From contig DBPM01000017.1 of NCBI GenBank assembly GCA_002304845.1, positions 1,198-29,141 on the forward strand: 27,944 nucleotides of DNA, in the 5' to 3' direction. The position numbers and the translations under genes were made by a program. Every line of letters begins with the position of its first letter. Position 1 is the first letter of the stretch. A model generated the notes under the pieces. That model was not told the DNA's origin. It searched no databases and was given only the letters and a program-made list of their open reading frames with translations. This DNA comes from Candidatus Shapirobacteria bacterium UBA1420. GTDB taxonomy: Bacteria > Patescibacteriota > Microgenomatia > UBA12405. Shown piece after piece: positions 14,385 to 16,804 of this stretch.

Positions 14385-15454
14385 ACTTCTACAAAACTAA
14401 GGGCATTCACCGAACCGCTTTCCAACCAGTTGTTTCCATGTATCAAAAGTAGTTTGCTTTTATTTTTAATCAGTTTTGCTCTTTTAAGTTCTTCAAAAAT
14501 ATCGTGATTTTTATCAAAATATTTATCAGTAAATTTTTTAAAATAGGGGATTACCCCATAAGATAGATTTAATAATTTTGCTACTTCTTCTTGGTCGGTA
14601 ATGGCAATGATATTTTTCTTGAGACGATAATTACTTAATTTTTGCGCTGATCCTCCGGATTTTGTAAAGACAACGACTGCATCTGCAAATTCTGATAAAT
14701 CTTTAGCCGACTTAATTATTGTTTCCCCTAAAGTGTAGTTATTATGTTCAATTTCTTTGATATCACCGTTTTTCTCACTAAAACCTAAAATTTTACTCAT
14801 TACTTTAACTGCTTCCACTGGATGTTCTCCAATCGAAGTTTCTTCCGACAACATCACCGCATCGGCTCCGTCAAACAAAGCATGAGCCACATCAGAAGCC
14901 TCCGCTCGAGTCGGTAGGGGATTTTTAGTCATGGATAGCAGCATCTCTGTAGCCACAATTACCGGTTTGTTGGCTAATCTGGTGGTATCAATAATTTTTC
15001 CCTGTAATGTAGCTAATTCTTCAATCGGAATATTTCTTCCCAGGTCGCCTCTAGCTACCATGACTCCGTCTGCCACTTGAATAATTTCTTCCAAATTTTT
15101 GAGCGCTGAGATATTTTCAATCTTGGCAATAATCGGTAATTTTCGTCCCTGTCTTTTTAATCTCTCTTTTACTTTCTCAATCTCTAACGCATTTTTAATA
15201 TATGATACGGCCACCATATCCACATTTTCAAAAATTTCAAAATCAAGTCTGGGAATATCCAAAAGTATCGGCACCTTACTACCACTTACTTTTCTAATAT
15301 TTCTAATTGCTTTTTGATGCCAACTTTTATCATTATATTTAGTGTTTAATCGACAAACATTCACTCCGTTTTGAATAATTTCGCTCAAGACTTTTTCACT
15401 TTCCGTCGCCGGCCCCACCGTCGCCACAATTTTACTTTTTCTATTTTGAGTCAT
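14381..15454 (-). CDS. pyk: Pyruvate kinase, divergent, lacking the B (lid) domain
   Basis: SKIVATVGPA, IIAKIEN, DGVMVARGDLG, PVIVATEML, PTRAEASDV, DAVMLSEET, plus a C-terminal alpha/beta domain. Confidence 0.9.
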   Translation of the reverse strand: MTQNRKSKIVATVGPATESEKVLSEIIQNGVNVCRLNTKYNDKSWHQKAIRNIRKVSGSKVPILLDIPRLDFEIFENVDMVAVSYIKNALEIEKVKERLKRQGRKLPIIAKIENISALKNLEEIIQVADGVMVARGDLGRNIPIEELATLQGKIIDTTRLANKPVIVATEMLLSMTKNPLPTRAEASDVAHALFDGADAVMLSEETSIGEHPVEAVKVMSKILGFSEKNGDIKEIEHNNYTLGETIIKSAKDLSEFADAVVVFTKSGGSAQKLSNYRLKKNIIAITDQEEVAKLLNLSYGVIPYFKKFTDKYFDKNHDIFEELKRAKLIKNKSKLLLIHGNNWLESGSVNALSFVEV

Positions 15455-15515
15455 CTATACCATCATAGCAAAGAAAAATATTCCAAGATTTATTTACTTT
15501 ATGTTATTTGTTTTG

Positions 15516-15586
15516 TTACCCCGCATGGATTCGAACCACAATTCTTACGTTCAGAGCGTAATGTCCTACCATTAGACGACGGGGTA
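15516..15586 (-). tRNA. tRNA-Gln(CUG), 71 nt, CCA not encoded
   Basis: TACCCCG/CGGGGTA acceptor stem with U1-A72, D arm GTCTAATGGTAGGAC, anticodon arm TTACG-CTCTGAA-CGTAA, T loop GGTTCGAATCC. The next bases are CAA. Confidence 0.95.
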
Positions 15587-15593
15587 CAAACAA

Positions 15594-15658
15594 AATGTCC
15601 TACCATTAGCTGCCTCATCGGCAGCCCGCCGAAGAGGCGGGACGATGGTGTACAAACA
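15594..15658 (-). repeat. Copy B of the tRNA-Gln 5' end with a 32-nt double-hairpin insert (15609-15640)
   Basis: TGTTTG-TACACCATCGTC-[CCGCCTCTTCGGCGGGCTGCCGATGAGGCAGC]-TAATGGTAGGACATT, with two mismatches to the tRNA acceptor strand. Confidence 0.93.
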
Positions 15659-15660
15659 TT

Positions 15661-15918
15661 TTAGTCTTCCAAGCTATATTTTATCTTATCTTTTAATACT
15701 TCTCTACCGTAACCACTCTTCCAAAACACTTCGGCAGCAGTTGCATCCCTCTTATCTTTAAATGCTTCAAAAAATATTAATTCAAAAGGAGCATTTCGTG
15801 ACGTATATTTGCTTCCTATTTTTTTATTATGTTCCTTAAATCTTTTGTTTATATCTCCAGTGTAACCGGCATATAAAGAATGATTCTTTTTACTTCTTAG
15901 AACATATGTAAACCACAT
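15661..15918 (-). CDS. Small stand-alone GIY-YIG nuclease, 85 aa (alternative start 15933)
   Basis: FTYVL...LYAGYT...KRFKEHN...SKYT...AAEVFWKSGYGR retains the Tyr/Tyr-Gly/Arg/His/Glu positions of the GIY-YIG module. Confidence 0.88.
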   Translation of the reverse strand: MWFTYVLRSKKNHSLYAGYTGDINKRFKEHNKKIGSKYTSRNAPFELIFFEAFKDKRDATAAEVFWKSGYGREVLKDKIKYSLED

Positions 15919-15926
15919 TACAAATT

Positions 15927-15979
15927 CTACCATTAGCTGCCTCATCGGCAGCCCGCCGAAGAGGCGGGACGACGGGGTA
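15927..15979 (-). repeat. Copy A of the tRNA-Gln 5' end with an identical 32-nt insert (15936-15967)
   Basis: TACCCCGTCGTC-[same 32 nt]-TAATGGTAG, an exact match to the first 21 nt of the tRNA apart from the insert. Confidence 0.93.
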
Positions 15980-15989
15980 GCATTTTGAT

Positions 15990-16012
15990 ATTTTATCGTA
16001 AAAAGTTATAAT
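15990..16012. promoter_or_regulatory. Divergent -10 boxes: putative tRNA/GIY-YIG promoter (minus) and promoter of the 16018 ORF (plus)
   Basis: Minus strand: TAAAAT at 15990-15995, 10 nt before copy A. Plus strand: TATAAT at 16007-16012, 5 nt before ATG 16018. Confidence 0.55.
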
Positions 16013-16017
16013 TCTCT

Positions 16018-16188
16018 ATGAAAACTATCGATGAACTAGCCGTTGAACTTAAACTCACCCCCGATCAGACCCAAGGGATTAAAAAATATTTTGAAGATTC
16101 AGTAATCGAACTCTTAACTTCTCTTCAACAAGACAATCATCAAAGTTTTGAAGAGACCATTAATTCCATTCGCAATACTGACAATTAA
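16018..16188 (+). CDS. Unannotated 56-aa acidic helical protein
   Basis: MKTIDELAVELKLTPDQTQGIKKYFEDSVIELLTSLQQDNHQSFEETINSIRNTDN*. A perfect TATAAT lies 5 nt upstream. The ORF is below the track's size cutoff. Confidence 0.7.
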   Translation: MKTIDELAVELKLTPDQTQGIKKYFEDSVIELLTSLQQDNHQSFEETINSIRNTDN

Positions 16189-16804
16189 ACCACTCTCTGG
16201 CTTCAGCCACAGTTGTTTTTTCCCCATGTCCCGGCAATATTTCTACCTCATCGGGTAGTTTTAAAACTTTACAAATACTTCTAAACATTTCTCTATTGGA
16301 ACTGTATTGATGTCTGGTGTCACCTCTCATGCCTCCGGCAAAAATCAAATCTCCGTCAAATAAAAATTTATCCGCCAAAATTGACACCCCTCCGGGAGTA
16401 TGTCCGGGTGTTTTCATAATTTTTATTTTTTGCTCACCCAAGCTTAAACTCTGGGTTTTATCCAGATCAATGTCAATTTTTTTAAAATTCGGTACCTGAA
16501 TTTTTGCTCCTAAAAAATGGTTAGCACTTTCTTGTTGTCTGGCTAATAAAAAGAAGTCTTTTGGACTGGCACAAAAAGGCACTTGATAAATTAATTTCAA
16601 ATCCAGCGCCGCTAAATTATGGTCAAAATGCCCGTGAGTCGAAATGACGTATTTAAGTATCAGTTGCCTTTTTCCTATTTCTTCAGAAATTGTCTCCGCA
16701 CTGTCGGCAGCGTCTATCACCACTGATTCCTGACTTTGACTATCCCATAATAGGTAACAATTGGTCGCCAGTTCTCCTAAAACCAGTCTTTCATATTCAA
16801 ACAT
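16160..16804 (-). CDS. MBL-fold metallo-hydrolase (glyoxalase II-like)
   Basis: TNCYLL, THGHFDH, TPGHTPG, GDLIF, ILPGHG. Confidence 0.92.
   Translation of the reverse strand: MFEYERLVLGELATNCYLLWDSQSQESVVIDAADSAETISEEIGKRQLILKYVISTHGHFDHNLAALDLKLIYQVPFCASPKDFFLLARQQESANHFLGAKIQVPNFKKIDIDLDKTQSLSLGEQKIKIMKTPGHTPGGVSILADKFLFDGDLIFAGGMRGDTRHQYSSNREMFRSICKVLKLPDEVEILPGHGEKTTVAEAREWFNCQYCEWN

Follow-up and report, generated by a model that had tools for sequence, protein, structure and literature searches.

A 393-nt unit with a GIY-YIG nuclease gene is located within the 5′ portion of the gene for tRNA-Gln(CUG), on the minus strand of a 27,944-nt stretch of DNA from Candidatus Shapirobacteria bacterium UBA1420. 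The whole stretch is called the window below; it is part of contig C4 of a 513-kb genome of the Candidate Phyla Radiation (CPR) type. We interpret the unit as a dispensable insertion-type cassette that combines a nuclease gene of the Ssn/UPF0213 kind, hairpins specific to the nuclease clade, and a replacement for tRNA nt 1 to 12, and that would spread via breaks made by the nuclease, an interpretation in which our confidence and our doubt are about equal. The nuclease gene travels with the hairpin and the tRNA fragment, and the locus is a well-resolved member of a large family of tRNA-lodged GIY-YIG/hairpin cassettes in CPR bacteria. It is a good example of this class because an empty allele is available at the strain level and because the covariation in its hairpin is clear.

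The 393-nt unit and its empty site

Contigs of public sequencing runs were aligned to positions 15000 to 16500 of the window. In run X7, a 22,990-nt contig matches positions 15000 to 15574 (13 differences) and 15968 to 16500 (1 difference) and skips exactly the 393 nt at 15575..15967 (minus strand), a frame that can be slid by up to 12 nt. The 12 letters at the joint fit either side and fall within a 12-nt repeat, and the leader is followed directly by the intact tRNA. This contig is the empty allele of the locus in a near-identical (~99%) strain.

The same two states are found among related genomes. Throughout the genus, tRNA-Gln(CUG) is neighbored by a gene for a metallo-β-lactamase (MBL)–fold hydrolase, a divergent 56-codon open reading frame (ORF), and often a pyruvate kinase gene. 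In at least 12 same-genus genomes, the site within this gene neighborhood is empty: only 18 to 50 nt separate the small ORF from the tRNA. The leaders of an empty site (G008) and a filled one (G001) differ by 2 to 3 bases. Filled sites were found in G001, G018, and G022 and in two other genera (G024 and G027), with protein identities of 67 to 81%; ORF-less relics are present at G004 and G014. In G015, the closest relative (its pyruvate kinase is 95% identical), the last ~39 nt of the GIY-YIG ORF remain beside the tRNA. An earlier note on this DNA, made from the sequence alone, had proposed a discrete element of roughly 390 base pairs (bp) and had suggested a search for its empty site in relatives. 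The element is indeed discrete, 393 bp that are present or absent between near-identical strains and between same-genus genomes, and the empty site exists both in the genus and in run X7.

On the minus strand, the order of features is promoter, copy A of the tRNA 5′ end (nt 1 to 12, double hairpin, and nt 13 to 21), GIY-YIG gene, copy B, spacer, and intact tRNA-Gln(CUG). The native promoter-like site TAGAGA-17 nt-TAAAAT with the tRNA-Gln leader (15990..16018; the −10–like TAAAAT at 15990-15995) now precedes copy A, and this leader is nearly identical to the empty-site leader of G010 (locus L037). In copy A, tRNA nt 1 to 12 (15968..15979), the upstream one of the two 12-nt direct repeats delimiting the 393-nt unit, are followed by double hairpin A (32 nt; 15936..15967) and by nt 13 to 21 (15927..15935), which end 8 nt before the GIY-YIG ORF. 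The ORF, a single-domain nuclease gene of 85 codons plus a stop that begins with ATG-TGG, occupies 15661..15918. Eight nucleotides after it, copy B starts with nt 1 to 12 carrying mismatches C4A and G7A (15641..15652) and continues with double hairpin B (32 nt; 15609..15640), identical to A, and nt 13 to 26 (15595..15608). An 8-nt spacer (15587-15594) then leads to the intact tRNA-Gln(CUG) at 15515..15586, which was called by both ARAGORN and Rfam (58.6 bits) and is the sole tRNA-Gln of the assembly. All of these features are on the minus strand. The double hairpin reads stem, TCTTC loop, stem and then stem, GATGA loop, stem, and the ORF is separated by 17 nt from the upstream copy and by 20 nt from the downstream one.

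This order and these coordinates agree with the earlier note, whose tRNA, GIY-YIG gene (Pfam), partial copies, and −10–like TAAAAT were all located. The tRNA 5′ duplications that it described are present as well; its account left out the 32-nt double hairpin that splits both partial copies, identically, between nt 12 and 13. Because the hairpin interrupts both copies, the true repeat is 53 nt at 96% identity. As the note had also stated, one intact tRNA copy is retained, and it is kept because the cassette supplies a replacement copy of the first 12 nt. Comparison of the filled allele with the empty site of G010 shows 100% identity of the intact tRNA, which also matches the empty allele of run X7.

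The arrangement does not result from faulty assembly. In run X2, which is independent, three mismatch-free contigs cover positions 15420 to 15629, 15616 to 15956, and 15943 to 16500, with all four distinct hairpin junctions at an even depth of ~16 to 17; two hairpin copies are therefore present in the X2 sample. Duplications produced by mis-joined repeats would be compatible with one feature of these data: Logan contigs are built from 31-mers, which the 53-nt repeat exceeds, so that they end at the hairpins and do not show which left junction belongs with which right one. However, the same architecture recurs in 5 other genomes and in dozens of paralogous loci, and we consider such an artefact, which the note had named as a possible refutation, scarcely credible.

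The two promoter hexamers recur within the 3′ end of the GIY-YIG ORF, in a second promoter-like site (15678..15706, minus strand). In a repeat comparison, this site is a copy of the native promoter region at 74% identity, and, judged by this resemblance, it may drive the intact tRNA-Gln. A scan of positions 15000 to 16500 against Rfam 15, with E values up to 1, matched the tRNA alone and no ribozyme or leader motif; a hammerhead-like core considered in CCGATGAGG was dropped on this result. The hairpins are not classical terminators, since a terminator scan of the locus found no intrinsic terminator. A 94-codon ORF starting from an ATG in the second hairpin loop was rejected because this ATG is missing in orthologs (loops GAGGA and GAAGA); the MWF start is conserved among them. 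The loop sequence GAGG was likewise rejected as a Shine-Dalgarno sequence, being ~21 nt from the start codon and thus too distant. The 393-nt unit holds the GIY-YIG ORF only, with no integrase gene, and its duplicated tRNA piece is the 5′ end, not a 3′ att site. No ORF for an HUH (Y1) transposase was found within or beside it.

The nuclease and the double hairpin

The product of the ORF, 84 to 85 residues long, matches Pfam GIY-YIG (PF01541) over residues 1 to 71 with an E value of 7.6e-18. The whole protein is thus a catalytic domain, and it has no DNA-binding domain. Among 30 homologs, residues Y5, G18, R26, H30, E63, and K67 never vary, and Y16 is retained in at least 90%. The closest solved structures are the UPF0213 proteins BH0048 and EF2693 (PDB 1zg2 and 1ywl; E values of 1.6e-14 and 3e-14), followed by the nuclease domain of SLX1 (1e-6), an enzyme that acts with partners on branched DNA. 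We know of no function assigned to UPF0213 proteins. Across six orthologs, the ratio of nonsynonymous to synonymous substitution rates (dN/dS) is 0.06 to 0.18, and synonymous sites are saturated. The protein is under strong purifying selection, and the divergence among the six orthologous cassettes is old; recent horizontal transfer among them is not supported, given the saturation. In more distant genomes, the GIY-YIG protein is 75 to 81% identical versus about 49 to 59% for the neighboring MBL-fold hydrolase.

The nearest characterized enzymes belong to the Ssn family (Chenal et al. 2025; PMC11893778), single-domain GIY-YIG proteins of ~94 residues (cd10448) that include SsnA of Neisseria meningitidis. 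In 42% of Ssn homologs, a hairpin repeat is present on both sides of the gene. Binding of the hairpin by Ssn enzymes requires single-stranded DNA (ssDNA), and the cut falls a few bases upstream of the hairpin; the enzymes are inactive on duplex DNA and on RNA, and SsnA modulates natural transformation in Neisseria (PMC11893778). Our protein resembles them, by layout and by published description, as a single GIY-YIG domain of <150 residues with the same catalytic Tyr/Tyr/Glu spacing (Y5, Y16, and E63 against Y6, Y17, and E64 of SsnA; PMC11893778). It is also similar in that the gene lies between two hairpin repeats (≤500 bp) and that the type of hairpin covaries with the protein lineage.

This last property extends across different tRNAs. 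The protein clade found at Asn and Leu tRNAs has a 20-nt palindrome, the Trp/Cys/Tyr clade has the hairpin CCCCGCAGCTGCGGGG, a clade found at Pro, Lys, Val, Gly, Thr, and Met has a longer form (CCCGCCTGC...GCAGGCGGG), and the Gln(CUG) clade has the double hairpin. Comparison of the six orthologous loci shows invariant inner GCC/GGC pairs and constant loop patterns (TCNNC and GANGA), along with compensatory changes in the outer pairs; the outer pairs are Watson-Crick in 43 to 46 of 48 distinct copies, compared to 25 to 37 expected if the two sides were unlinked. The double hairpin stands just upstream of the ORF in all six orthologs and in ten cassettes of distant CPR lineages, and in five orthologous cassettes, the upstream copy is the only one. 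It is inserted after tRNA nt 12 at our locus and after nt 21 in G027 and many distant lineages. Analogy with the Ssn pairs suggests that the double hairpin is probably the nuclease’s own partner.

A cassette with these components could operate as follows. The native promoter and the displaced nt 1 to 12 stay upstream and probably drive the nuclease gene through copy A, while the promoter copy in the ORF 3′ end may serve the intact tRNA-Gln. If the enzyme behaves as Ssn proteins do, it would bind the hairpin in ssDNA and cleave the strand a few bases to the 5′ side, at the cassette/tRNA junction. Such breaks, with conserved tRNA sequence as homology, would drive gene conversion and tandem duplication and would allow the cassette to spread or be retained. 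All repeat units seen begin at the hairpin 5′ edge: the 327-nt unit of our locus, 120-nt units in G022, and the ORF-less units described below. The G022 units (L044:1680-1914 and L058:1-125) form a tandem array of at least 3 downstream of the cassette, inside which the contig breaks; each consists of a pseudo–tRNA-Gln (nt 5 to 76) that is split after nt 12 by the double hairpin.

Several results weigh against this interpretation. The published SRM search pattern for Ssn repeats gives 0 hits, both in the window and genome-wide (513 kb). Synonymous sites are saturated, and long vertical descent with repeated loss via the direct repeats, a serious alternative, would give the same patchiness of filled and empty sites. 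To our knowledge, GIY-YIG nucleases have no strand-joining activity, and the insertion step would therefore fall to host recombination. Lastly, the hairpin occurs well outside the cassette. In a wider scan of one genome per species, it was present in at least 120 stretches, nearly all from Patescibacteria and from many classes. When 80 of these loci were examined, about 10 were Gln-type cassettes, about 14 were hairpin-bearing tRNA fragments without an ORF next to other tRNAs, and the rest were located elsewhere; most of the 80 have no GIY-YIG gene within 8 kb. Among 69 low-GC hairpin sites, 28 are inside open frames of at least 100 amino acids (aa), and ten of those frames have at least 400 aa. 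Five hairpin-rich genomes were searched, and no close Gln-type ortholog was found in them; two (G061 and G064) hold 7 to 8 exact hairpin copies. Strict dependence of the hairpin on the Gln-type gene was rejected on account of these genomes. Together with the copies far from GIY-YIG genes, they indicate that the hairpin can multiply without this gene nearby.

Some of the copies inside reading frames are in frame within long ORFs of up to 756 aa (L109:3357-3383, L143:3893-3919, L123, L068, and others). There, the hairpin is read as peptides such as SPRRRSADEAE, in the manner of Rickettsia palindromic elements.

The wide distribution of the hairpin, its in-frame copies inside about ten ORFs of at least 400 aa, and the hairpin-rich genomes devoid of a Gln-type ortholog would also be expected of two unrelated selfish elements, a palindromic mini-element having landed by coincidence in decaying tRNA fragments and the GIY-YIG gene having no connection to it. 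However, among 61 relatives, the double hairpin is confined to the six genomes with a Gln-type gene, to a relic at tRNA-Gln(UUG) in G015, and to a single site in G009. It lies just upstream of the ORF in every one of the six orthologs and ten distant cassettes, and other protein clades each have a hairpin type of their own. We therefore think a chance meeting of two elements very unlikely. A different possibility is that the GIY-YIG nuclease and the hairpin constitute a new, tRNA-specialized type of hairpin-ended mobile element, in which the nuclease would cut ssDNA just 5′ of the hairpin and host recombination would insert or amplify, in a transposition-like manner, units with the hairpin at their start and a rebuilt tRNA segment at their end; ORF-less units and in-frame hairpins would then be nonautonomous derivatives. 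We regard this proposal as improbable.

Residence of the family at tRNA genes

GIY-YIG homologs are present, in 1 to 10 copies each, in 51 of the 61 related genomes, and some copies have internal stops. To describe their positions, we surveyed 118 homologous ORFs in 112 loci sampled from related genomes. A same-strand tRNA gene is located within 120 nt of 83 of the 118 ORFs (49 ORFs are upstream of the tRNA, 33 are downstream, and 1 overlaps it), and an opposite-strand tRNA is nearby for only 1; from tRNA density, we estimate that 1 to 2% of ORFs would be adjacent to a tRNA by chance. The adjacent tRNAs represent at least 16 amino acid types. For 56 of the 83, a significant ungapped duplicate of the tRNA end is found on the far side of the ORF. 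A duplicated 5′ piece accompanies 40 of the 49 ORFs upstream of their tRNA, and a duplicated 3′ piece accompanies 15 of the 33 downstream ORFs. The association of homologs with tRNAs that have duplicated ends, which the earlier note had proposed to check, is thus borne out. The partial tRNA copies commonly hold an inserted GC-rich hairpin or a hairpin in place of an arm. In phage records, only distant homologs (<45% identity) were found.

The UBA1420 genome itself contains two paralogs. One is directly after tRNA-Thr(GGU), with three hairpin-bearing tRNA-Thr–like fragments upstream and a 3′ fragment past its stop codon; the other is downstream of the transfer-messenger RNA (tmRNA) gene. The double hairpin has 2 copies in this genome.

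The same genome also has units without an ORF that are built from tRNA fragments and hairpins (C39:4730-4790, C39:4990-5048, and C37:7086-7230). Such a unit consists of a tRNA 5′ fragment, the 20-nt palindrome CCTGCCTGCCGGCAGGCAGG, the next tRNA bases, and a short leader. ORF-less units directly precede the intact tRNA-Leu(UAG) and tRNA-Lys(CUU), and a hairpin-bearing 3′ fragment follows tRNA-Cys. The assembly contains 21 tRNA genes at a rated completeness of 89%; repeated tRNA fragments and hairpins may break assembly at tRNA loci.

Presence or absence at a conserved site among close relatives is a property shared with homing endonuclease genes, and the homing-like entry suggested in the earlier note fits the pattern of presence and absence of the unit. 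In classical homing, the nuclease would cut the uninterrupted, duplex tRNA-Gln gene near nt 12/13, and double-strand break repair would copy the cassette from the filled allele. A precedent is SegB, a free-standing GIY-YIG homing enzyme of T-even phages encoded among the tRNA genes of the T4 tRNA cluster, which targets this region and causes its preferential inheritance (PMC2330249). In favor of homing, protein clades tend to hold one tRNA type: on the maximum-likelihood protein tree, there are 57 changes of adjacent tRNA type versus 80.7 in shuffles, a weak test since related genomes share labels by descent. In the empty allele of run X7, moreover, 12 of the 13 differences cluster in 93 nt next to the tRNA (15333 to 15425), adjoining the cassette site, while the other 865 nt of flank hold 1 difference (99.8 to 100% identity). 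Although this comparison concerns a single pair of alleles, the divergent patch may be a recombination tract gained or lost with the cassette and could represent co-conversion.

The filled allele, however, regenerates the supposed target, with a tRNA the same as that of the empty site, and thus would not be immune. Unlike SegB and I-TevI, the nuclease has no joined DNA-binding domain, being a bare 84-residue catalytic domain, and its characterized single-domain relatives cut ssDNA only. SegB further differs in that it cuts duplex DNA and is located between intact genes, with no duplicated tRNA ends or hairpins. Well-supported protein clades also contain switches of tRNA type and of 5′/3′ position, so that within a single clade, the ORF may be 5′ of one tRNA and 3′ of another. 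Since the rebuilt tRNA does not differ from that of the empty site and the protein lacks a DNA-binding domain, we consider cleavage of the uninterrupted tRNA gene by a classical homing enzyme markedly unlikely. Of the homing-like entry, the distribution of the unit stands, while the target is not destroyed and entry by cutting of the tRNA gene is conjecture. As a separate observation, the 93-nt patch falls in the first codons of the pyruvate kinase gene, and the same variant occurs in run X2 as a minor one, at about one third of the depth.

The long persistence of the gene raises another possibility, namely, that it is domesticated. It would then have a cellular function, such as restriction of phage or incoming ssDNA or modulation of transformation, would borrow the tRNA promoter, and would be lost occasionally via direct repeats, with no present mobility. 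Purifying selection with saturated synonymous sites, the conservation of the nuclease above that of the neighboring MBL-fold gene in more distant genomes, the occurrence of 1 to 10 copies in most related genomes, and the cellular role of SsnA in transformation are all consistent with such a history. On the other hand, the gene is missing in a ~99% identical strain and in most same-genus genomes, is replaced or degraded in others, and has copies with internal stops. Many copies per small genome at many tRNAs, each with a rebuilt end, are hard to explain without repeated insertion. We judge domestication to be rather unlikely, though a contender to be taken into account, and favor an insertion-type cassette.

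Relation to described systems

While the layout is that of the Ssn pairs, there are clear differences from them. The hairpin of our locus is double, is outside the published SRM pattern, and is rare, with 2 copies in this genome rather than hundreds. The gene-hairpin module sits inside a tRNA gene and rebuilds the tRNA end; the term tRNA occurs 0 times in the Ssn paper (PMC11893778).

The nuclease also distinguishes the cassette from other mobile elements of bacteria. Short, dispersed, GC-rich palindromes are known from repetitive extragenic palindromic (REP) sequences and BIMEs, which are associated with RAYT, and from the Rickettsia palindromic elements; some of them are in frame in protein genes, and REP sequences flank the gene of their cognate nuclease. 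Unlike in REP/RAYT and IS200/IS605 systems, the associated enzyme here is GIY-YIG, with no HUH/Y1 transposase. Unlike tRNA-integrating islands and prophages, the cassette has no integrase and duplicates the 5′ rather than the 3′ end of the tRNA.

A closer parallel in architecture comes from fungal mitochondria. In 1994, Paquin, Laforest and Lang reportedly described a mobile endonuclease ORF in atp6 of Allomyces macrogynus that brings a replacement gene end, and Paquin et al. are said to have described, in 2000, double-hairpin elements of the same fungal mitochondrial genomes. As in these mobile ORFs, a GIY-YIG ORF in an essential gene is accompanied by a duplicate of the displaced segment, with a pseudo-fragment left behind, and, as in these genomes, GC-rich double hairpins with compensatory changes are found in an AT-rich genome. 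The fungal type differs in that its enzymes are multidomain, its hosts are protein-coding genes, and the 3′ end is duplicated, in contrast to the bacterial tRNA gene and the bare domain described here.

In CPR bacteria, GIY-YIG ORFs were described in non-intron insertions of rRNA genes, with no mention of residence at tRNA genes (Tsurumaki et al. 2024; PMC11270868). Our cassette is similar to these cases in its host group and in the location of a small GIY-YIG ORF in a structural RNA gene. We observed one such case among the homologs, a GIY-YIG ORF inside a 23S rRNA gene (L033 and L034, from G041 and G055); an rRNA helix is extended there by a 15-bp stem (CCCCGCCCTTTCTGG / CCAGAAAGGGCGGGG), and the ORF occupies its loop.

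The literature searched yielded no account of GIY-YIG cassettes lodged in tRNA genes. The suggestion of the earlier note that this is an undescribed system is therefore right for residence in tRNA genes but not for the pairing of nuclease and hairpin, which has been published for Ssn. The new part is the tRNA residence with a rebuilt tRNA end, and the nearest published relative is the Ssn nuclease-hairpin pair. If our interpretation is true, CPR tRNA genes house a very compact selfish module of ~330 to 390 bp that borrows the tRNA promoter, restores the tRNA into which it inserts, and brings along the hairpin that its nuclease recognizes. Ssn enzymes would then extend from genome-wide, transformation-modulating repeats to a tRNA-lodged, mobile-looking lifestyle. 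Such modules would account for the numerous tRNA fragments and GC-rich palindromes of CPR genomes and, probably, for poor assembly at their tRNA loci, and they would offer natural nuclease-hairpin pairs of differing specificity for ssDNA tools. For annotation, partial tRNA copies beside real tRNAs are easily miscalled.

Two further observations concern loci related to the cassette. One GIY-YIG clade, often 3′ of tmRNA or of tRNA-Ser/Asp, is preceded by a conserved, ~80-nt AT-rich element (L002:1740-1900 on contig C9 of the UBA1420 genome, L012, L014, L018, and L028; in L024, it is downstream). The element has two nested long-range pairings, ACGTAATAA...TTATTACGT and TTAAACGT...ACGTTTAA, each around a hairpin, and no match in Rfam. 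In G015, ~1.2 kb stands in place of the cassette (L036:300-1430) and contains an ORF for a 283-aa radical S-adenosylmethionine (SAM)–like protein (CxxxCxxC) and an 84-aa ORF with repeated Gly/Ser/Cys-rich units. By their sequences, these two ORFs look like a small peptide-modification pair.

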